A DNA stretch of 64,000 bases, taken from assembly GCA_963717145.1 (NCBI GenBank), contig OY970325.1, forward strand, positions 2,432,001-2,496,000, in the 5' to 3' direction. This DNA comes from an uncultured Armatimonadetes bacterium. GTDB taxonomy: Bacteria; Armatimonadota; UBA5829; DTJY01. The position numbers and the translations under genes are program-made. Shown here one piece after another: positions 1-15,039 of the stretch. The notes under the pieces were generated by a model that saw nothing but the letters and a program-made list of their open reading frames with translations, ran no database searches and was not told the origin of the DNA. The number at the start of each line of letters is the position of its first letter. Within the stretch, counting starts at the first letter, position 1.

Positions 1-756
1 GAACCGGGACATGTGCATCGACGCGATCGCACAGGCGCTCAGGAACTCGGCGGCGAAGTCGCGCGAAGACACGGCGTCCATGCTGTTCTCGGCGACCTTG
101 GAGAAGCCGAGCAGTTCGGCGACTCGCTGAGGGTCGAGCGGGAACGAGGTTCCGGCCATCGCGCCTGCTCCGAGCGGGAGGATGTCGGTCCGCCGGAAGC
201 AGTCGGCGAAGCGCTCCCGGTCGCGCTGGAACATCCACACGTATGCGAGCAGATGGTGTGCCAGCGGGATCGGCTGGGCGTGCTGAAGGTGCGTGTAGCC
301 CGGCATGATGTCGTCGAGATGCTCTTGGGCGGTCTCGACGAGGGTCTGCTGCACGCTCTGGAGTGCAGCATCGAGGGCCTTGATCTGCGCCTTGACGTAC
401 ATGCGCAGGTCGAGGGCCACCTGATCGTTCCGGCTGCGGGCGGTGTGAAGCTTGCCGGCGACGTCACCGATCCGCTCGGTGAGGAGCTTCTCGACGTTCA
501 TGTGGATGTCCTCCGCCGAAACGTCGAACTCGACCTCCCCGGCGCGGATGTCCATCTCGATCGCCTTCAGTCCGTCCACGATGGTCTGCGCATCCTCGGT
601 GGGGATGATGCCGCGCTCACCGAGCATGGTGGCGTGCGCGATACTCCCCTCGATGTCGAACTCCCAGAGCCTGGAGTCGAACCCGATGGATGCGTTGAAC
701 CGATCGACATCCTTCGACGTGGCCTTGCTGAACCGGCCACCCCACAGCTTGGACAT
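1..756 (-). CDS. argH: argininosuccinate lyase, 3' end runs off the window
   Basis: Manual translation from ATG 756: MSKLWGGRFSKATSKDVDRFNASIGFDSRLWEFDIEGSIAHATML; follows argG; absent from the ORF track because there is no stop in the window. Confidence 0.95.
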   Translation of the reverse strand, partial: MSKLWGGRFSKATSKDVDRFNASIGFDSRLWEFDIEGSIAHATMLGERGIIPTEDAQTIVDGLKAIEMDIRAGEVEFDVSAEDIHMNVEKLLTERIGDVAGKLHTARSRNDQVALDLRMYVKAQIKALDAALQSVQQTLVETAQEHLDDIMPGYTHLQHAQPIPLAHHLLAYVWMFQRDRERFADCFRRTDILPLGAGAMAGTSFPLDPQRVAELLGFSKVAENSMDAVSSRDFAAEFLSACAIASMHMSRF

Positions 757-772
757 GGCTTACCTCGCGTAT

Positions 773-875
773 CCCGTAGTGGCCGTGCCTCCGTGCCGGC
801 CTGCACCGGTCGCTGCAGTGCCACTATCCCAAACAAGATCGGTACAGGCCGGCACGGAGGCACGGCCACTACGGG
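773..875. repeat. GTAG-tagged REP-like inverted pair (family A)
   Basis: GTAGTGGCCGTGCCTCCGTGCCGGCC ... GGCCGGCACGGAGGCACGGCCACTAC; same arms at 11234-11298 and 56908-56998. Confidence 0.9.
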
Positions 876-878
876 TGG

Positions 879-2069
879 TCATCCTTTCTTCATCAGCGAC
901 CAGTACATCCGTGACTGGAGGCCGTGGATCTTGACGGCCCCGGTCATCTCGCTCTGATCGAACGTCTTAGTATCGAACGACGCCAGGTCCTCGGAGTAGA
1001 GCGCGTACTTGCTGCTCCGTCCCTCGACCTTCGCCGATCCCTTGAAGAGCTGCATCCGGACCGTGCCGGTCACCCGCTCCTGAATCTTGTCGATGAACGC
1101 CTCGAGGTCGTCCTTGAGCGGGTCGAACCAGAGGCCTGCGTATGCCAGCTCGCCCCACTTCTGGTCGACCATCGTCTTGAACTGCCGCTCGTCCTTCGTG
1201 CAGACGAGGCCTTCGAGCGCCTTGTGAGCCATGATGAGGATCACCGCGGCCGGGCACTCGTAGTTCTCGCGCACCTTGAGCCCGAGCATCCGGTCCTCCA
1301 TGACATCGACTCGCCCGACACCGTTCCGACCGGCGATCTCATGCGCCGCCTTGACGAGTTCGACCGGACCCATCGCCCTGCCGTTGATAGCGACCGGGAC
1401 GCCCTTCTCGAAGGCGATCTCGACGGTCTCCGGCTCATTCCGGCTGTCCTGAATGCTTTTCGTCCACTGGAAGATCTCCTCCGGCGGCGTGTAGTTCGGC
1501 TCTTCGAGCCGTCCGCCCTCGATCGAGCGGCCCCACAGGTTCTCGTCGATGCTCCAGATCTTCTCGACCGTCTGCGCGATCGGGACGCCGTGCTCCCTGG
1601 CGTAGTCGATCTCCTCCGTGCGGGTGTAGTTGTGCTCCCGCATCGGTGCGATGATCGGCAGGTCGGGGCACATGGTGCGCCATACGAACTCGATTCTGAA
1701 CTGGTCGTTCCCCTTGCCGGTGCATCCGTGGCAGAACGCATCCGCGCCGACCTTCTTGGCGATCTCGGCGCTCTTCAGCGGCAATCAGCGGCCGGGCGAT
1801 GGAGGTGCTGATCGGATAGCCCTGGTAGTCGCCGTTCGCCTTGACCGCCGGGAAGCAGTAGTCCGTCACGAACTCGTCTTTGGCGTCGATGGTGTAGTGC
1901 TCGGTGCCGAGGGCGTCGCCCGCTCCTCCGCCTGCTTGATGTCCTCCTCGGGCTGACCGACGTCCACCGTGACGGTGACGATATGATCGAATCCGTAGTC
2001 CTCCTTCATCATCGGTATGCAGACGGACGTGTCGAGTCCCCCGGAATATGCGAGTACGACTTTCTTCAT
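879..2069 (-). CDS. argG: argininosuccinate synthase, with two compensating indels near 1916 and 1780 (probably sequencing errors)
   Basis: [28 protein letters not shown] and [10 protein letters not shown] motifs spread over three ORF pieces. Confidence 0.93.
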
Positions 2070-2082
2070 AGCTCCCCTCCCA

Positions 2083-2118
2083 GAATGGTTAATGGCTGAT
2101 GGTTGATGGTTGATGGCA
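2083..2118. repeat. heptamer tandem array (ATGGTTG-like)
   Basis: gaatggttaatggctgatggttgatggttgatggc between argF and argG. Confidence 0.75.
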
Positions 2119-2147
2119 GACCGGCTCCCATCGAACCATGCTCTTCG

Positions 2148-3587
2148 CTACATCACCAGTGCCATGACCGCCTTCTGGGCGTGCAGGCGGTTCTCAGCCT
2201 CGTCGAAGACGACCGACTGCGGGCCGTCGATCACCTCGTCGGTGATCTCCTCGCCCCTGTGCGCGGGCAGGCAGTGCAGGACGATGCTGTCGGCCTTCGA
2301 CACGTCCACGAGCGCCTGGTTGACCTGGTATGGCCGGAAGATCGGGAGGCGCACCTCGCTCTCGGCCTCCTGGCCCATGCTCGTCCAGACATCGGTGTAT
2401 ATCGCGTCGGCGTCCCGGGCGGCTTCCATCGGATCGGTCGTGATGGTGATCGTCGCGCCGTTCTCGTCCGCCTCGCGCTTGGCTGCCGTGTGGATCACCG
2501 TGTCGGGCTCGTATCCCTCTGGGCAGCCGACCGCGAAGTTCGCGCCGAGTTTCGCCGCGAGTAGCATCAGGCTGTGGCACGTGTTGCTGCTGCCGTCGCC
2601 GATGTACGCGACCTTGAGGCCCTTGGGATCGCCCTTCTTTTCGTATATTGTGAGGAAATCGGCCAGCGCCTGGCAAGGGTGCTCCAGGTCGGAGAGGCCG
2701 TTGATCACCGGTATGTTCGCGTATTTCGCGAGATCGACGACGGTCTGGTGCGAGAACACCCGCGCCATGATGCCCTGCACCATGCGCTCGAAGTTCCGAG
2801 CCGCGTCGGGAACGCTTTCCCGAGTGCCGAGCGCGATGTCGGACGGCTGGATGTAGATCGCATGTCCGCCGAGCTGAGTCATCCCCGTCTCGAAGGTCAC
2901 CCTGGTCCGCAGCGATGGCTTCTCGAAGATCATCGCGAGCGTCTTGCCGGGCAAGATCGGATGATCGACCTGGTACTGCAGCGTTCGGCCTTTGAGCAAT
3001 CCGGCAACCTGGAAGATGGCGTATACTTCGTCCCTGGTAAGGTCGCGGATGGAAAGTAGATCGCGGCCCCGCAGAGCATCGGTCGCTACGGTCGTTACAT
3101 CTGCATGCTTTGTTTCCATCGTGTACTCTCCTTCGCCGACCGCTTTCCTGGCTGTGCCAAGATCGATACCGGCTTCCACCAGTGCTTTTCCAGCTTCGCC
3201 TCTCCCAACCCGCAGGAGTCCGAGGAGCAGGTGCTCAGTGCCTATGCAGTCACAACTCAAGCGGCGGGCCTCGTCGTAAGCCATGTCAATCACCTGTTTA
3301 CCGCGCCGACTGAGCATCCTCTCCTGACGCTCTTTCCCATCACCCAGGCGCAGGCGCCTCCACATCTCGTCCCTGAGATCCCCGGGATCGACCTCGTTCT
3401 GTTCGAGGATACGCCATGCAACCGAGTCCGGCATGTGCAGCAGTCCGAGCAGCAGGTGCTCCGTCCCAACAATGGTAGAGCGAACCAAGTCCGCCTCCTC
3501 GTCGGCGTAAATAACGGCTCGTCGTGCCTTCTCTGTAAGTCTCTGCCACATGGTTCGTCGTGCCTTCTCTGTAAGCCTCTGCCACAT
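2148..3587 (-). CDS. argF: ornithine carbamoyltransferase with an in-frame N-terminal Clp repeat (Clp_N) domain; internal start at 3119 likely
   Basis: OTC motifs FEKPSLRTRVTF, HPCQALAD, YTDVWTSMGQE, HCLP, EAENRLH; N-terminal two GTEHLLLGLL Clp repeats; ATG 3587 preceded by GGGAG. Confidence 0.9.
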   Translation of the reverse strand: MWQRLTEKARRTMWQRLTEKARRAVIYADEEADLVRSTIVGTEHLLLGLLHMPDSVAWRILEQNEVDPGDLRDEMWRRLRLGDGKERQERMLSRRGKQVIDMAYDEARRLSCDCIGTEHLLLGLLRVGRGEAGKALVEAGIDLGTARKAVGEGEYTMETKHADVTTVATDALRGRDLLSIRDLTRDEVYAIFQVAGLLKGRTLQYQVDHPILPGKTLAMIFEKPSLRTRVTFETGMTQLGGHAIYIQPSDIALGTRESVPDAARNFERMVQGIMARVFSHQTVVDLAKYANIPVINGLSDLEHPCQALADFLTIYEKKGDPKGLKVAYIGDGSSNTCHSLMLLAAKLGANFAVGCPEGYEPDTVIHTAAKREADENGATITITTDPMEAARDADAIYTDVWTSMGQEAESEVRLPIFRPYQVNQALVDVSKADSIVLHCLPAHRGEEITDEVIDGPQSVVFDEAENRLHAQKAVMALVM

Positions 3588-3590
3588 GGT
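3519..3590. repeat. 36-bp direct tandem duplication encoding TMWQRLTEKARR
   Basis: 3519-3554 and 3555-3590 are identical except for one synonymous site (3540 vs 3576). Confidence 0.95.
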
Positions 3591-3602
3591 ATTCACTCCC
3601 CA

Positions 3603-3688
3603 GAATGGTCAATGGGGAATGGTTGATGGTTGATGACAACCAGTCACCCATCCCCCATGAACCATAAACCATCGACCATTTCCCATCC
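3603..3688. repeat. inverted heptamer arrays (ATGGTTG / CAACCAT-like)
   Basis: aatggtc-aatgggg-aatggttg-atggttg followed by complementary accat-containing heptamers. Confidence 0.75.
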
Positions 3689-3690
3689 GG

Positions 3691-4185
3691 CTACGTCGTC
3701 GGCATGCATGCCGCGCCGGCGCCGCTGCCGTTAGACTGGCCGAACGGGAGGCGGCCTGCCTGCAGATTGCGAAGCTGGCTCAGGATCGCGCTCGGATCGG
3801 CGCCCAGCCGGTTGAGCACGCCGGCTGCAAGTCCGCCGGTCTCTCGTGACAGGCCGAGGAGCAGATGCTCGGTGCCTATCCATTCGTCACTAAGCCGTCT
3901 GCCCTCAGCAAATGCGTGGTCAATGACCTGCTTCGCATCGACAGTCAACTGAATGTCGTCGCCAAGGTGGTCGCAGCCACGGGACACAGATTTCATCAGC
4001 TCCGACTTAACCGTGCCGAGGTCGATGCCAAGACGCTCGAGCAGACTCGCGGCAACACAGTCGTCCTCGCGGATGAGCGCAAGGAGCAGGTGTTCCGGCC
4101 CAACGTGATTGTAGCCCAGCTTTTCGGCTTCCTGCTGGGCCAGGAAGATCGCCTTCCTGGCATGCTGAGTGAGTTGTCTCCACAT
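3691..4185 (-). CDS. stand-alone Clp N-terminal (Clp_N repeat) domain protein, 164 aa, no AAA+ module
   Basis: MWRQLTQHARKAIFLAQQEA, GPEHLLLAL, GTEHLLLGL; RBS CAGGAGG before ATG 4185. Confidence 0.9.
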   Translation of the reverse strand: MWRQLTQHARKAIFLAQQEAEKLGYNHVGPEHLLLALIREDDCVAASLLERLGIDLGTVKSELMKSVSRGCDHLGDDIQLTVDAKQVIDHAFAEGRRLSDEWIGTEHLLLGLSRETGGLAAGVLNRLGADPSAILSQLRNLQAGRLPFGQSNGSGAGAACMPTT

Positions 4186-4201
4186 ACTAATGCCTCCTGG
4201 T

Positions 4202-4233
4202 AAACTCGAAATTCGAAACTCGAAATCCGAAAT
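4202..4233. repeat. heptamer tandem array (TCGAAAY-like)
   Basis: aaactcgaaattcgaaactcgaaatccgaaat between argD and the Clp_N gene. Confidence 0.75.
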
Positions 4234-5444
4234 CAGTCCAAGACTCCATTCACAATCCGGACGGCAGTGTCCACGTCTTCTCTGGTCACAATTAGCGGCG
4301 GGAGGAATCGGATGATGCTCGCACCGATCGCATTCACGATGAGCCCATCCCTCAGACACCTCGCAGCAATCTCCGAGGCATCGCTTCGGTTCGTCTCCAT
4401 GGCCACCATCAAACCGACTCCCCTGATCTCCTTGATATCGTCTCGCTTGTCCTTTAGACGCATGAGCGCGTCGCGAAAGTATGCGCCCACTTCGGCGGCA
4501 TTATCCACGAGGCGCTCGTCCTCGATGGCCTGCAGGGTCGCGAGTGCAGCCGCACACGCCAGCGGATTCCCTCCAAACGTCGAGGCGTGATTCCCCGGTT
4601 CGAATGCCGACGCGACTTTGTCGGTCGCGAGGCATGCGCCTATCGGAAATCCACCGCCGAGTGTCTTCGCCAGGCTCATGATGTCCGGCTTGATCCCATA
4701 GTGCTCGAAGCCGAACCACTTGCCGGTGCGTCCGAGACCTGTCTGCACCTCGTCAAGTATCAGCAGCAGGCCCCGGGCATCGCAGATCTGCCGGATCGAT
4801 CTCAGGTACTCCGTCGAGGCCGGATGCACCCCACTCTCACCCTGGATCGGCTCGAGCATAATCGCGCACGTGCTCGGACCGATCGCGGCTTCGAGCGCGG
4901 GGAGATCGTTGTAAGGCACGTACTTGAAGCCCGGCATCAGGGGCTCGAAATCCTTGTGATATTTCGGCTGGCCGGTAGCGGTCACCGTCGCGAGCGTTCG
5001 TCCATGGAACGACGCCTCCGCGGTGATGATCTCGAACCGCTCGGGGCCGTGGTGGAGCTTCGACCACTTGCGCGCGAGCTTGATGGCGGCTTCGTTCGCC
5101 TCGGCGCCGCTGTTGCAGAAGAACGCCTTGCCCATGCCGGACAGCCCGACCAGTTTCTTCGCGAGGGTCGGCCCCTGGGGCGTGAAGTAGAGGTTGCAGA
5201 CGTGCATCAGAGTGCCCGCCTGCTCCTGAATAGCGCCGACTACCGCCGGATGAGCGTGGCCCAAGCCGTTCACTGCGATCCCGGCGAGGAAGTCGAGGTA
5301 CTCCCTGCCCTCGGAGTCCCAGACCTTCATCCCCCGGCCTCGGACGAGCACCACCGGCTGACGTCCGTAGGTGTGCATGATGTAATCCGAATCCATCTGC
5401 ATCACCGTCTGTGTGTCAACCTCGGGTTTCGATATCACCGCCAT
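4233..5444 (-). CDS. argD: acetylornithine aminotransferase
   Basis: DFLAGIAVNGLGH, NSGAEANEAAIK, SFHGRT, DEVQTG, AKTLGGG; arg operon context. Confidence 0.95.
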   Translation of the reverse strand: MAVISKPEVDTQTVMQMDSDYIMHTYGRQPVVLVRGRGMKVWDSEGREYLDFLAGIAVNGLGHAHPAVVGAIQEQAGTLMHVCNLYFTPQGPTLAKKLVGLSGMGKAFFCNSGAEANEAAIKLARKWSKLHHGPERFEIITAEASFHGRTLATVTATGQPKYHKDFEPLMPGFKYVPYNDLPALEAAIGPSTCAIMLEPIQGESGVHPASTEYLRSIRQICDARGLLLILDEVQTGLGRTGKWFGFEHYGIKPDIMSLAKTLGGGFPIGACLATDKVASAFEPGNHASTFGGNPLACAAALATLQAIEDERLVDNAAEVGAYFRDALMRLKDKRDDIKEIRGVGLMVAMETNRSDASEIAARCLRDGLIVNAIGASIIRFLPPLIVTREDVDTAVRIVNGVLD

Positions 5445-5469
5445 TTGTCCTCTCCTGCCAGATCATCGT

Positions 5470-5538
5470 GTGGGGGCGAACCATTGGCTGCCGGTGGCCA
5501 CCTCGTTGCACGTTCGGTAGCCAATGCTTCGCCCCTAC
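5470..5538. repeat. GTAG-type REP-like inverted pair (family D)
   Basis: GTGGGGGCGAACCATTGGCTG ... TAGCCAATGCTTCGCCCCTAC; sister copy at 19738-19807. Confidence 0.85.
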
Positions 5539-5630
5539 AGCATAGAAACGAAAAGAGACAGAGTCGTGCCTCTGCCTCTACAGTACGCTGAATCGCCGTA
5601 TTCCATTGTCATGCAGATCGGCTTTTTCAT
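5535..5630 (-). CDS. candidate 31-aa leader peptide MKKPICMTMEYGDSAYCRGRGTTLSLFVSML
   Basis: Lies between the internal promoter and argD; its only two Arg codons (AGA) fall in the terminator 5' arm; RBS is weak. Confidence 0.35.
   Translation of the reverse strand: MKKPICMTMEYGDSAYCRGRGTTLSLFVSML
5546..5579 (-). terminator. intrinsic terminator/attenuator upstream of argD
   Basis: AGAGGCAGAG-GCACGA-CUCUGUCUCU, a 10-bp stem with one G-U pair, followed by UUUCGUUU. Confidence 0.75.
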
Positions 5631-5662
5631 GTCCATCCGCCCTGACACTTGGTTGTTGATCT

Positions 5663-5691
5663 ATTCTACAGACCCCACGAGAAAATGTCAA
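5663..5691 (-). promoter_or_regulatory. sigma70-type internal promoter for argD onward
   Basis: TTGACA-17 nt-TAGAAT. Confidence 0.75.
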
Positions 5692-5696
5692 CCATT

Positions 5697-5778
5697 TGGA
5701 GTGCGGTGGCTCGACACCGCTTTGTTCTTCGGCGGCTTGACGCCGTCCGCGAAAGCGGTGTCGAGCCACCGCACTCCA
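5697..5778. repeat. GGAG-tagged REP-like inverted pair (family B)
   Basis: 27-nt perfect inverted arms TGGAGTGCGGTGGCTCGACACCGCTTT; single hairpin copy at 9234-9263. Confidence 0.9.
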
Positions 5779-5780
5779 GA

Positions 5781-6638
5781 TCATGCAATCATGGTGCCGA
5801 TGCCCTTGTCCGTGAACACCTCGATCAGAAGCGCATGAGGGATCGTGCCGTCGATGATGTGCGCCCGCTCGACCCCGCCGTCACGCGCCGTGACGCACGC
5901 CTCGACCTTCGGGATCATGCCCGAATCAACCGCGCCCGACCGGATCAGGCCGTGCGCCTGCTTGACGGTGAGCTGCGAAATCAGGCTCGACTTGTCGCTG
6001 AAATCCTTATAGATGCCGAGAACGTCGGTCAGCACAATCAGTTTTGACGCGACGAGAGCCGCCGCGAGTTTCCCCGCCGCGTGATCGGCATTGATGTTGT
6101 ACGTCTTACCGTCGCGACCGACCGCCACGGATGAGATAACGGGGATGTATCCCTCCCGGATCAGGGTCTGGATGAGGTCGGTGTTGATCTCCACCACGTC
6201 TCCTACGAATCCGAGATCGCCGCCCTCCGAGACCATCTTCTCCGCGACGAAAAGGTCGCCGTCCTTGCCGCTCAACCCGACGGCCTTACCGCCCTGCCGA
6301 TTGATCAGCGCCACGATGCCTTTGTTCGTCTTGCCGGTCAGGACCATCTCGACGATCTCCATCGTCTCCTCGTCGGTGACGCGCAGACCGCCAACAAAGG
6401 CGGGCTCCTTGCCGACCTTCTTCATCATCTCGCTGATCTCCGGCCCGCCGCCGTGAACGAGCACAGGCTGCATGCCGACATAGCGCATGAGCACGATATC
6501 GCGCATAACGCTTTCCTTGAGTTCGGGGTTGACCATGGCGTTGCCACCGTACTTGATGACGATGGTCTGCCCGGAGTACCGCCGTATGTATGGCAGCGCC
6601 TGAACCAGTATCTTGGCGTCCTCGATTGCCTTTTCCAC
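5781..6638 (-). CDS. argB: acetylglutamate kinase
   Basis: QALPYI, VIKYGGNAM, VHGGGPEI, GLRVTD, NINAD, GMIPK; GTG start after GGGAGG. Confidence 0.95.
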   Translation of the reverse strand: MEKAIEDAKILVQALPYIRRYSGQTIVIKYGGNAMVNPELKESVMRDIVLMRYVGMQPVLVHGGGPEISEMMKKVGKEPAFVGGLRVTDEETMEIVEMVLTGKTNKGIVALINRQGGKAVGLSGKDGDLFVAEKMVSEGGDLGFVGDVVEINTDLIQTLIREGYIPVISSVAVGRDGKTYNINADHAAGKLAAALVASKLIVLTDVLGIYKDFSDKSSLISQLTVKQAHGLIRSGAVDSGMIPKVEACVTARDGGVERAHIIDGTIPHALLIEVFTDKGIGTMIA

Positions 6639-6652
6639 TAGAACCTCCCGGA

Positions 6653-6762
6653 GAACACAGATGACACAGATGGCAGATGATGGAACAGATGGAAGGGGAA
6701 CTGGGATTTCAACACCCATGAACTATCCTTATCATCCCTCTCCATCCGTGTCATCTGTGTTC
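6653..6762. repeat. inverted nonamer-type array (ACACAGATG)
   Basis: gaacacagatgacacagatgg ... ccatccgtgtcatctgtgttc, 21-nt arms with 1 mismatch. Confidence 0.75.
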
Positions 6763-6769
6763 TTTTGCC

Positions 6770-7975
6770 TTACGTATGGTACTCCGCGTTGATGCGGATG
6801 TAGTCGTATGAGAAATCGCAGGTCCAGACGGTCGCGGATCCCTGCCCACTTCCGATTCTGAGCAGGACGGCGACCTCCCGATTGGTCAGGTATTCGTGTG
6901 CCTGCTGCTCCGAAAAGTCCGTCGGCTCGCCGTTCTCGATGAGCGCGATCGGCCCGAAGCTGAGCTTCACGTCGGCCGGATCGAAGTCGACGCCTGCCCT
7001 TCCGGCGGCGGCTAGCACCCTGCCCCAGTTCGGATCCTTGCCGAACATGGCCGTCTTCACGAGGGGCGAGTTGGCGATCGTCTTGGCCACCGACCGAGCA
7101 TCCTCGAAGGAACGAGCGCCTTCGACCTTGATCTCGATAAACTTCGTCGCCCCTTCGCCGTCCGATGCGATCTGTTTGGCCAGCGACGTGGTGACGAAGT
7201 CGAGCGCCTCCTGGAAGGCATCGAGTTCGGCGGTCCCCTGCCCAAACTGCGGGTAGCCGGCTGCTCCGTTCGCCAGGATGATGACGCTGTCGTTCGTGCT
7301 GCTGTCACCATCGACGGTCAGGCAGTTGAACGACGTCTCGACCGACTTCGACAGGCACGACTGCAGCAGGTCGGGCGCGAGGGCGGCATCCGTCGTGATG
7401 AACGCGAGCATCGTCGCCATGTTCGGGCAGATCATGCCCGCGCCCTTGGCGATCCCGCCGATGCGGATGACCTTCCCCCCGAGAGTGAATTCGACGCAAG
7501 CCGTCTTGGGCCGAGTATCGGTGGTCATGATCGCACGAGCGGCGAGTGGGCCGCCCCCGTCGCTCAGAGTCTCGCGTGCCTGCTTGATTCCGGCCAGAAT
7601 CTTGTCCATCGGAAGCCGTTTGCCGATGATACCCGTCGATGCGACGAGAACATCCTCCTCAGTCACCTCGAGGAGCCCGGCAGCCTCATTCGCCGTCCGC
7701 AATGCATCCTGGTGGCCGGCCTCTCCCGTGCAGGCATTCGCATTCCCGCTGTTGACGACGATCGCCCGCGCGGTCGCCCTGGGAAGCCTGAGAGAGTCGA
7801 TCTGCACCGACGCGGCCTTGACCACGTTCGTCGTAAAGACGCCCGCCGCCGATGCCTGGCGCTCCGAAACGATGAGCGCGAGGTCCTCTCCCTGCTCCTT
7901 GATCCCGGCTCGGACTCCCGACGCCAGGAATCCCGCGGGCGCGGTGACTGTACCTTCTATCTCTTTGAAACTCAT
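6770..7975 (-). CDS. argJ: ornithine acetyltransferase / N-acetylglutamate synthase
   Basis: NSGNANACTG, ASTGIIG, IMTTDT, KGAGMICPNMATML, DGEGATK, YIRINAEYHT. Confidence 0.96.
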   Translation of the reverse strand: MSFKEIEGTVTAPAGFLASGVRAGIKEQGEDLALIVSERQASAAGVFTTNVVKAASVQIDSLRLPRATARAIVVNSGNANACTGEAGHQDALRTANEAAGLLEVTEEDVLVASTGIIGKRLPMDKILAGIKQARETLSDGGGPLAARAIMTTDTRPKTACVEFTLGGKVIRIGGIAKGAGMICPNMATMLAFITTDAALAPDLLQSCLSKSVETSFNCLTVDGDSSTNDSVIILANGAAGYPQFGQGTAELDAFQEALDFVTTSLAKQIASDGEGATKFIEIKVEGARSFEDARSVAKTIANSPLVKTAMFGKDPNWGRVLAAAGRAGVDFDPADVKLSFGPIALIENGEPTDFSEQQAHEYLTNREVAVLLRIGSGQGSATVWTCDFSYDYIRINAEYHT

Positions 7976-8001
7976 AGCGGTGTCCTCTGGTTTTCGCCAC
8001 G

Positions 8002-8031
8002 ATGATAGCATTACGGGCAACCGTTTGGCAA
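8002..8031 (-). promoter_or_regulatory. candidate sigma70 promoter of the arg operon
   Basis: TTGCCA-18 nt-TATCAT with extended TG. Confidence 0.5.
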
Positions 8032-8037
8032 ACCTTT

Positions 8038-8122
8038 GGAGTGCGGAAGCGGGAGGGCGAGGCTCCGTCCGAGCCGGGATACATGGCTCGGACGGAGCCT
8101 CGCCCTCCCGCTTCCGCACTCC
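8038..8122. repeat. 38-bp perfect inverted repeat, composite REP (family C core inside family B ends)
   Basis: GGAGTGCGGAAGCGGGAGGGCGAGGCTCCGTCCGAGCC, 9-nt loop, then the exact reverse complement. Confidence 0.92.
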
Positions 8123-8192
8123 GAAACACAAAAGGCCGGAGCAAGATGCCCCGGCCCGGAAAAGTGACGAGTGATGGCTATCCGAGCGCGGT

Positions 8193-9005
8193 CTAAGACC
8201 TACGAGCGGCGACGAGCCAATTGGTGTATCGGGAACCGAGCAGATTGTCTATGCCGACTCCACCTCGGGATGAGGACGAGTGGATGAACATGCCGTTGCC
8301 CATGTATATGCCCGCATGGTCGACCGCGCCACCCTTGCAGCAGAAGTAGAGCCGATCGCCGGCCTGAAGCTGGCTGAACGACACAGCCGTCCCAACGTTC
8401 GCCTGGTCCCGCGCGACTCTCGGCAGGCTGACACCGTGGCTGGCGAAGACGGCTTTGACGAACCCGGAGCAGTCCAGGCCACTGAATGAATAGCCGCCCC
8501 AAACATACGGGATGCCGAGGTATTTGATCGCGGTGTTGACGACCTGACTGCCCGATGCGCTCGACGCGGTCTGCGTGCCGACAACCTGGTAGTCGAGCAG
8601 GCTCACCGATTTCTTCGCGATCCATCCGGTGCTCCCGTTGGACATCAGGACGCCGTACCAGGCGCTGTTTTCGCCGACAATGGCGATATAGGTGTCCTTC
8701 GAGCACGTGTAGTACGTGCGGCCCTTCGAACTCGGGACTGACTCGATGTCCGCCTTGGCGGAGATGATAACGCCGACCCGGCCGATGGGCGCTTCTTTGC
8801 CTGAGGCCTTGGTCTGAGTCTCCGCTCGGTACTGCTGCGTGGAGGCGTTCGCTCTGGTTGCGCCCGTCGTCTCGTGATTCAAGCGCATTTCCGCGCTCTT
8901 CGACGGCGACGCATCGAGAGTTATGGTGAGAGTCTGTTCTGCAACCGCACAGGATCCGAGGATGGCAAGAAGCGCCAACCCCGGTAGTATCAACCTTCGC
9001 AACAT
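8193..9005 (-). CDS. secreted SH3-like + NlpC/P60 peptidoglycan endopeptidase
   Basis: Signal peptide; WYGVLMSNGSTGWI; YLGIPYVWGG, DCSGFV, HAGIY, FIHS catalytic motifs. Confidence 0.9.
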   Translation of the reverse strand: MLRRLILPGLALLAILGSCAVAEQTLTITLDASPSKSAEMRLNHETTGATRANASTQQYRAETQTKASGKEAPIGRVGVIISAKADIESVPSSKGRTYYTCSKDTYIAIVGENSAWYGVLMSNGSTGWIAKKSVSLLDYQVVGTQTASSASGSQVVNTAIKYLGIPYVWGGYSFSGLDCSGFVKAVFASHGVSLPRVARDQANVGTAVSFSQLQAGDRLYFCCKGGAVDHAGIYMGNGMFIHSSSSRGGVGIDNLLGSRYTNWLVAARRS

Positions 9006-9233
9006 TAAGTGCCCCCAGGAACCGGTATCTTTGGGTATATTCCCAAACAGAGGCAAGCGCTAACCATCTGAGCATGCCTCTGTATGATTATCGGCTCGGT
9101 AACGGCAAGAACCGTATACCTCGGCAACAATATCCGGCAGATATGCCTGGTGCGCCCTCTTGCGGCGCTGAAAAACGTCCAGGCCTGCCAATCTATAGAC
9201 GACGGAATCGGCCCCGCATGTTCCGTGCGGTCC

Positions 9234-9263
9234 TGGAGTGCGGTGTCGAGCCACCGCACTCCA
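9234..9263. repeat. single family-B REP hairpin just after the rpsI stop
   Basis: TGGAGTGCGGTGTCGAGCCACCGCACTCCA. Confidence 0.8.
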
Positions 9264-9269
9264 AAACGA

Positions 9270-9665
9270 TTAGCGCTTTGAGAACTGGAACGCGCGCCGT
9301 GCTCTCTTGCGGCCGTATTTCTTGCGCTCCTTGACTCGCGGGTCTCTGGTCAGGAAACCGAGACGGCGCAGAACGGTGCGATACTCGGGATCGGCCTCGA
9401 TGAGCGCCTTGGAGATCCCGTGGCGAATCGCGCCGGCCTGGCCGGATATGCCACCGCCCAAGACGTCGGCTCGGACGTCGAACCTGCCGGAAGCCTCGAC
9501 TGCCTCCATCGGCTGAACGATCAGCATCTCGAGCGTCTTGCGCCCGAGATACGCCTCAGCAGTCCGACCGTTGACGGTGATCGCGCCGGTGCCCGGCGAC
9601 AGCCATATCTTCGCGGTGGCGTTCTTCCTGTGACCCGTAGCGTAGTATCTTGCGTCTTTTGCCAC
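9270..9665 (-). CDS. rpsI: 30S ribosomal protein S9
   Basis: [25 protein letters not shown]. Confidence 0.98.
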
Positions 9666-9678
9666 TAAGATGTTCCTC

Positions 9679-10107
9679 CTAAATCTCCAGAGCCTCGGGC
9701 TGCTGCGCCTCGTGGGGATGCTCGGCGCCTCTGTAAACCCTCAGCTTCTTAAGCATGAGCGCCCCCAATGTGTTGTGCGGGAGCATACCCTTCACAACCT
9801 TCATGAGCAGCTTTTCAGGCTTGTCTGCCAGCATTCGGCCGTAGGTGGTGCTTCGGATGCCGCCCGGATACTGGGTATGCCAGTAGATCGGCGCGTCGGG
9901 CTTGCTGCGGCCGGTCATGACGACCTTGTCTGCGTTGATGATGATGACATGGTCCCCGGTGTCGATGTGCGGCGTGAAAATCGGCTTGTGCTTGCCGCGC
10001 AGTATCTTCGCGACTTGTGAGGCAAGGCGACCCATCGACTTCCCCTCAGCGTCGACGACATACCATTTCCGCACGATATCCTTTGGTTTTGCCGTGTATG
10101 TCCTCAT
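9679..10107 (-). CDS. rplM: 50S ribosomal protein L13
   Basis: [29 protein letters not shown]. Confidence 0.98.
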
Positions 10108-14963: not shown

Positions 14964-15039
14964 GGAATGGTTGATGTCTGATGGCTGATGGTTGATGGGG
15001 ATGCCATCAACCATTGACCATCAACCATCAACCATTCCC
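14964..15039. repeat. inverted heptamer arrays overlapping the adk 3' end
   Basis: ATGGTTG-like heptamers then CCATCAA-like heptamers; they supply the final adk codons GMVDG*. Confidence 0.8.

Follow-up and report, generated by a model that had tools for sequence, protein, structure and literature searches.

Clp N-terminal domains fused and adjacent to ornithine carbamoyltransferase in the arginine operon of an Armatimonadota bacterium, a putative link to protein arginine phosphorylation

The DNA analysed here is a 64,000-nt stretch (hereafter the window, to which coordinates refer unless stated otherwise) of contig OY970325.1, assembly GCA_963717145.1, from an uncultured, soil-type Armatimonadetes bacterium. 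On its minus strand lies an arginine biosynthesis operon with the gene order argJ-argB-argD-clpN1-clpN2::argF-argG-argH. The two genes between argD and argG are clpN1 (3691-4185), encoding a free-standing Clp N-terminal domain (Pfam Clp_N) protein of 164 aa, and clpN2::argF (2148-3587), an open reading frame (ORF) in which a second Clp_N domain continues in frame into an ornithine carbamoyltransferase (OTC). A first-pass annotation made from the sequence alone had reported these two genes, and we confirmed both at these positions. The pairing of Clp_N with OTC in the arginine operon recurs in many relatives within the Armatimonadota, a phylum that includes cultured members, and clpN1 and clpN2::argF represent a selected, vertically inherited gene pair inside the arginine operon.

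The clpN1 gene starts with an ATG at 4185 behind an AGGAGG ribosome-binding site (RBS) and ends with a TAG at 3693-3691. Its product matches only Clp_N in Pfam (102.5 bits against a cut-off of 20.7, in two stretches), and its C-terminal tail, LRNLQAG(R/T)LPFG, is conserved among ClpN1 orthologues (alignment A2, n=8). The fusion gene runs from an ATG at 3587 to a TAG at 2150-2148 and encodes 479 aa, or 482 aa from an alternative GTG start at 3596, with no stop codon between its Clp_N and OTC domains. Pfam and phmmer place the Clp_N domain at residues 13 to about 152 (3132-3551; 75.9 bits against the cut-off of 20.7, in two stretches), and the OTC catalytic part (2157-3065) comprises OTCace_N (2640-3065, E 2.2e-46) and OTCace (2157-2624, E 9.3e-62). 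No Pfam family for an AAA+ module scored above its cut-off in the fusion or in ClpN1, and the ClpB, ClpK and ClpG models reached 25-53 bits against cut-offs of 1232-1900, covering the N-domain only; the earlier statement that neither protein has an AAA+ module is thus borne out by both Pfam and NCBIfam.

The OTC part exceeds the equivalog cut-offs of TIGR00658 (409.7 against 280.85 bits) and NF001986 (421.6 against 306 bits), and its closest solved relatives are chains 1pvv and 1a1s of the Pyrococcus furiosus enzyme (E 4e-114). The fusion is the sole OTC of its genome, the next-best carbamoyltransferase match being only 29% identical, and the OTC oligomer is expected to be trimeric. Across 27 aligned fusions, SLRTR, HPCQ, SMG and HCLP vary little or not at all. 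They correspond to the OTC motifs given in PMC8517447, namely SxRT and HPxQ for carbamoyl phosphate, the SMG loop for ornithine, and HCLP.

The start of the fusion gene coincides with a 36-bp tandem duplication (3519-3590; 2.0 copies with 97% matches by Tandem Repeats Finder), which doubles the first 12 codons (MWQRLTEKARR and one further residue) and is specific to this record, being absent from 26 of 26 aligned relatives (alignment A1). The true start of the fusion may accordingly lie at ATG 3587 or at ATG 3551, the latter giving 467 aa, and the duplicated residues, which precede helix 1, could touch pocket 1 of the domain. Between the Clp_N domain and the OTC part lies a flexible linker (3066-3131) of about 20 poorly conserved residues, the length of which varies among relatives. 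The linker contains AAGGAGAG (3133-3126), followed after six nucleotides by an in-frame ATG (3119-3117) just ahead of the OTC part, from which an OTC-only product could be initiated. A linker start preceded by a Shine-Dalgarno sequence was present at 9 of the 17 loci examined (of 22), at non-homologous places, and these linkers thus gave no conserved start that would yield OTC alone.

Full-length, uninterrupted matches to the fusion were found in 16 of 41 close relatives. In addition to these 16, G001 has a fusion split by a frame break; the fusion of G032 has a longer linker. The search was extended to 301 genomes of the phylum, 246 of which had an OTC-level match. The best 150 of 247 matches included at least 43 fusions covering both domains. 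No stop codon was present in 38 of these 43 fusion matches and a single TAA in the other five (G005, G010, G014, G215 and G251), which frame inspection placed upstream of the true start in G005, G010 and G215 (loci L007, L006 and L112). A stop-free fusion is kept across at least eight families. At the protein level, Clp_N, OTCace_N and OTCace occur together in 119 of the 120 best clusters of the protein collection, and the named clusters belong to Armatimonadetes/Armatimonadota, Chthonomonadetes, 'bacterium HR16' and an Armatimonas metagenome-assembled genome (MAG). The premise that OTCs normally carry no Clp_N domain is correct as a general statement, but this phylum, with its many fusions, is an exception.

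The ratio of nonsynonymous to synonymous substitution rates (dN/dS), computed for four pairs, was 0.03-0.13 for Clp_N, 0.05-0.06 for OTC and 0.24-0.34 for the linker. On these values the fused Clp_N domain is under purifying selection about as strong as that on OTC, and is thus maintained as firmly as the enzyme. Since uninterrupted fusions occur in many related genomes, the in-frame junction is no product of the assembly of this record, and this conservation, together with the dN/dS values, refutes the worry, raised in the first-pass annotation, that a lost stop codon had joined two genes. A scan of genome contigs from which near relatives were left out returned mostly plain OTCs. It included a spurious 'full-length' tblastn match in a Bacillaceae-labelled MAG (L031), which was rejected as a fusion from a second phylum, the locus having argF followed by a complete clpB of 864 aa (5974-9963 of that locus) in mere adjacency. 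In public sequencing runs, the share of the sampled words that was present never exceeded 0.06, and the listing included no RNA run.

Across the phylum, the number of Clp_N copies per OTC ranges from 0 to 3, fused or separate. The family of the window combines a free ClpN1 with ClpN::ArgF, several families have ClpN::ArgF alone, and others have two or three Clp_N domains ahead of ArgF (674-739 aa, and in L109 about 830 aa). In G041 a tandem of Clp_N domains is encoded by a separate gene, G008 has only a free ClpN1, and family f29 includes close kin in fused, separate and remnant states. These fusion, fission and duplication variants are all located at the argD/argF junction. The first-pass annotation had suggested a look for argD-clpN-argF synteny in related genomes. 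Of 35 loci examined, 26 show both flanks, and in every one of these argD and argG enclose the Clp_N-ArgF unit; in the other nine, argD or argG was outside the fetched stretch or not found. At loci without Clp_N, argD usually abuts argF or an unrelated gene fills the gap. An 850-nt argD-argF gap in G023, considered as a diverged Clp_N, was rejected because it contains an unrelated 263-aa gene. At one f29 locus (L107, genome G207), Clp_N and the OTC catalytic part are separated by an additional module of some 110 aa that, read from its translation, looks like the N-terminal part of PilB/GspE-type ATPases; precomputed PF00437 matches exist on proteins P0220, P0224 and P0232, which are not tied to L107. 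A quick tree of 48 OTC rows places fused enzymes among unfused ones, and its starred branches force at least 5-6 changes of state, as would fit an association of long standing that was repeatedly lost or split. The Clp_N module is accessory and not part of catalysis.

Within the window's own genome, Clp_N domains are found only in ClpC, ClpB, ClpN1 and the fusion. The ClpC N-terminal domain (NTD) of the phylum is almost invariant and starts with MWQRFTERARR, a beginning shared by the fused domains. The window's fused domain has 47% identity to the ClpC NTD of the same genome and 42% to ClpN1. It belongs to the same fold family as the ClpC and ClpC1 NTDs (PF02861), has both Clp repeats and is colinear over residues 1-138 with residues 1-138 of the ClpC1 NTD chains in the PDB (phmmer E 3e-23). 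A tree of these domains is poorly resolved, with 8 of 49 inner branches starred, ClpN1 forming one clade (support 99) and the fused domains occupying long branches, a few of them beside ClpC. The fused Clp_N and ClpN1 are diverged paralogues of the phylum's own ClpC NTD, and the fused domain changes at a much higher rate than the ClpC NTD, which is nearly invariant.

ClpC-type N-domains are receptors of the phospho-arginine (pArg) degradation tag, and the residues lining their pockets can be compared across the family. Positions T7, E32 and E106 of ClpC were taken from PMC12583610, where their mutation is reported to affect the pArg1/2 pockets, and the pocket threonine from PMC13345244, which reports that it is required for pArg binding by ClpC2. 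The equivalents of T7, E32, K85 and E106 are largely kept in the fused domains, where T6 is present in 21 of 22 sequences, E31 in 20, E106 in 21 and K85 in 17. In ClpN1, T6, E31, T81 and E106 are present in all eight orthologues, and K85 in seven of the eight.

The genome of the window also encodes the McsB/ClpC arginine-phosphorylation system, which the first-pass annotation had suggested seeking elsewhere in the genome. An mcsB gene (PF00217, 164.5 bits; genome positions 4439200-4439802) adjoins the clpC NTD (4438282-4438656), and there is one low-molecular-weight phosphatase gene, which is not shown to be YwlE. McsB, as PF00217, was detected in 157 of the 301 phylum genomes overall; among the 43 genomes with the fusion, 38 had it. 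In the window's family it was present in eight of eight fused genomes and not found in the three unfused genomes G002, G003 and G008 (88, 99 and 100% complete). These co-occurrence counts are suggestive only.

Around the two Clp_N genes, the operon consists of recognisable arginine biosynthesis genes, all on the minus strand. ORFs for argJ (6770-8131) and argB (5781-6719) lie furthest upstream, followed by argD (4233-5444), the acetylornithine aminotransferase gene and upstream neighbour of clpN1, which was assigned by Pfam (Aminotran_3, 2.3e-130) and synteny. Downstream of the fusion are argG (879-2069), the argininosuccinate synthase gene, detected by Pfam on three ORF pieces, and the start of the argH ORF (1-756). 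DNA alignment with the closest relative shows that argG as assembled lacks one nucleotide near 1910 and has an additional one near 1778, about 130 nt apart. The two indels compensate each other, with some 43 well-conserved codons left out of frame and a TGA met at 1866-1868. This may represent either a consensus error or a very recent pseudogene.

The intergenic gaps of the operon contain several kinds of repeat. Between the argD stop codon and the clpN1 RBS, a 7-nt unit (AAATTCG-like) is repeated in tandem over 4.6 copies at 4202-4233. Long, near-perfect hairpins at 777-871, 5693-5782, 6651-6764 and 8038-8122, the last of which makes the argJ ORF seem longer than it really is, gave sub-threshold 'miRNA' matches to Rfam on both strands and look like repetitive extragenic palindrome (REP)-type elements. 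Apart from such sub-threshold matches on long hairpins, an Rfam scan of positions 1-9500 revealed no riboswitch or leader. The spacer between clpN1 and the fusion gene (3588-3690) holds an inverted pair of CCATNNN heptad arrays, at 3602-3629 on the minus strand and 3648-3689 on the plus strand, with the fusion gene's RBS after them, and two further arrays lie in the window at 2082-2116 and 15004-15038. Arrays of at least four heptads number 190 in the 5.37-Mb genome and none in three 2-Mb shuffles; they often form inverted pairs, spaced 10-60 bp from each other, and in many cases stop right before an RBS. They are a dispersed repeat family, and their number genome-wide rules out the possibility that the arrays 5' of the fusion and of argG are an arginine-specific regulatory element. 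Neither ArgR domain (PF02863, PF01316) has a match in this genome (98% complete, single contig), with control genomes positive, and transcriptional control of the arginine operon must therefore be of another kind.

Our preferred reading, plausible though held tentatively, is that the Clp_N modules keep the pArg binding of the ClpC NTD and couple OTC to the McsB/ClpC system. Through their conserved pockets, the modules would bind pArg, free or on McsB-marked proteins, and their tethering to the OTC oligomer would link the enzyme to arginine phosphorylation by McsB/ClpC. The coupling might consist in pArg sensing that alters OTC activity or assembly, or in pArg or pArg-bearing proteins being kept at, or away from, OTC, with ClpN1 supplying more of the same binding unit in trans. 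The first-pass annotation had proposed an arginine- or pArg-responsive control module. The pArg half of that proposal is compatible with the retained T7, E32 and E106 equivalents, the mcsB-clpC pair and the frequency of McsB among fusion genomes, and the free-arginine half is unsupported. More speculatively, and in our view improbably, pArg itself might be the hazard. N-phosphonoacetyl-L-ornithine (PALO) is described as a bisubstrate-analogue inhibitor of OTC (PMC8517447), and by our own chemical reasoning free pArg (ornithine-N-delta-C(=NH)-NH-PO3) would be nearly isosteric with it (ornithine-N-delta-C(=O)-CH2-PO3), such that ClpCP breakdown of McsB-marked proteins would free pArg as a natural OTC inhibitor and the Clp_N modules would guard against it, trapping it close to OTC, or sense it.

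Several observations weigh against coupling of OTC to the McsB/ClpC system through pArg. The residue T81 is present in only 12 of the 22 fused domains and is a serine in the window copy, and the conserved TEH motifs are weak evidence of a ligand because they are also the fold signature of Clp_N. PF00217 was not detected, even at E 0.001, in 5 of the 43 fusion genomes (G037, G193, G120, G109 and G302; 89-98% complete), nor was it found in G072, which is fused, or in G041 with its separate tandem Clp_N. Family f10 has two fusions and McsB in 0 of 17 genomes, and the McsB-rich families f8 (26 of 27), f13 (31 of 31) and f20 (5 of 5) show only OTC-length proteins among the matches listed. The genomes being kin, the co-occurrence counts also overstate independence, and the interspersion of fused and unfused enzymes on the OTC tree indicates that the module is dispensable in many lineages. 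A fixed allosteric interface is likewise disfavoured by the variable linker, which, together with the varying copy number, is easier to reconcile with a binding tether than with a domain acting as a rigid allosteric element. The absence of PF00217 is nevertheless not decisive, since mycobacteria have pArg and a pArg-binding ClpC1 and are described in PMC9604228 as lacking a known McsB homologue.

An alternative that we regard as rather unlikely is that the Clp_N domain is a docking handle, binding ClpC (at its M-domain or AAA1), McsB or an adaptor such that OTC is delivered to ClpCP or protected from it, or that the abundant Clp_N copies of the operon serve as decoys that tune ClpC during its expression. 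According to PMC12583610, the ClpC NTD pockets touch the M-domains in the resting state, and MecA, McsA/McsB and MdfA bind at the NTD, and the mycobacterial ClpC2 sponge reported in PMC13345244 provides a precedent. ClpC is encoded in the window's own genome, the fused domain still closely resembles the phylum's near-invariant ClpC NTD, and the G004 domain and the inner G230 domain are placed beside ClpC NTDs on the domain tree, with weak support. A decoy, however, has no obvious need of fusion to one particular enzyme, and the module has been lost repeatedly although ClpC NTD matches are seen throughout the relatives. The strict confinement of the modules to the arginine operon, the persistence of fusions in genomes without McsB and the need for some other arginine control in a genome without PF02863 or PF01316 would all suit a sensor of a metabolite other than pArg (arginine, argininosuccinate, citrulline or carbamoyl phosphate) that subjects OTC to end-product or substrate control, in the way PyrI acts in the paralogous aspartate carbamoyltransferase (ATCase). 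To our knowledge, no Clp_N domain binds metabolites of the arginine pathway, an allosteric switch suits the variable linker and the one to three copies less well than a tether does, and pArg, not plain arginine, is reported to have activated ClpC through its NTD (PMC12583610), for which reasons we consider such a sensor unlikely.

The remaining alternatives do without ligand signalling or without function. The hydrophobic Clp_N groove might bind unfolded segments or another enzyme, such as one supplying carbamoyl phosphate, and thereby aid folding, assembly or channelling as a structural or chaperone-like accessory. The closest solved enzyme, that of P. furiosus, a dodecamer said to channel carbamoyl phosphate, would be in keeping with such a role, as would the further N-terminal OTC module at the f29 locus L107, PilB/GspE-like by reading of its translation, and the binding of unfolded substrates by the NTD groove of ClpC and ClpB described in PMC12583610. 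An accessory of this kind leaves the retention of pocket residues and the co-occurrence with McsB unexplained, and we find it doubtful. Finally, the assembly problems near the fusion (the argG indels and the record-specific 36-bp duplication) could be taken to indicate a lost stop codon, an assembly error or a neutral remnant; given the stop-free fusion in at least eight families and the low dN/dS of the domain, this is refuted for the fusion as such and we consider it hardly credible.

The nearest described system is mycobacterial ClpC2, which PMC13345244 describes as a Clp_N-like domain combined with a DNA-binding domain, acting as pArg sensor and repressor and as an antibiotic sponge. Like ClpC2, the fusion is an ATPase-less ClpC-NTD paralogue joined to an unrelated effector domain, and in ClpC2 the effector responds to ligand binding in the pocket. 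Unlike in ClpC2, the effector is OTC, the Clp_N domain is N-terminal rather than C-terminal, and the phylum is a different one. Both pockets look conserved in the fused domain, whereas ClpC2 retains one, and ClpC2 chains match the fused domain more weakly (8ad9, 8.7e-14; 9p2p, 7e-9) than ClpC1 NTDs do. Pfam identified no DNA-binding family in the fusion or in ClpN1, and neither is therefore a repressor of the ClpC2 type. In contrast to ClpC, the fusion and ClpN1 lack the AAA+ module, the M-domain and the ClpP-binding part, and their Clp_N domains are attached to an enzyme or free-standing.

As an enzyme, the fusion resembles canonical anabolic ArgF (TIGR00658), with a full OTC above the cut-off, the same motifs and a position in the arginine operon, and differs from it by an N-terminal extension of about 170 aa, which the solved OTC chains (301-340 aa) do not have. 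Transcarbamylases that work with a separate regulatory protein include the PyrB-PyrI holoenzyme of ATCase and yeast OTC, which is inhibited by the binding of arginase. What the fusion shares with these cases is a carbamoyltransferase with a non-catalytic partner or domain, its regulation being putative here, and Clp_N is not homologous to PyrI or to arginase. A full-text literature search found no paper describing a Clp_N-OTC protein, in agreement with the earlier statement that no Clp_N-ArgF system had been described, and none linking pArg to OTC or to OTC inhibition. Databases label the fusion proteins plain ornithine carbamoyltransferase. Some fusions are moreover hidden by public annotation, as at locus L094, where NCBI calls a 321-aa OTC from an internal Met start (P0236) and other gene callers give a 472-aa fusion (P0058). 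The two proteins fall in the same 90% cluster and apparently come from the same contig (70446 bases in both).

In bacteria, OTC is usually taken to lack regulation at the protein level. If the modules do couple OTC to the McsB/ClpC system, the enzyme would gain a regulatory appendage, and, as far as the literature searched goes, the pArg system would for the first time be seen to reach directly into metabolism. Should the modules guard OTC against pArg or sense it, this would amount to a direct and unrecognised cross-talk of protein arginine phosphorylation with arginine biosynthesis, and would explain why, in the set examined here, OTC is the only metabolic enzyme to carry the domain.

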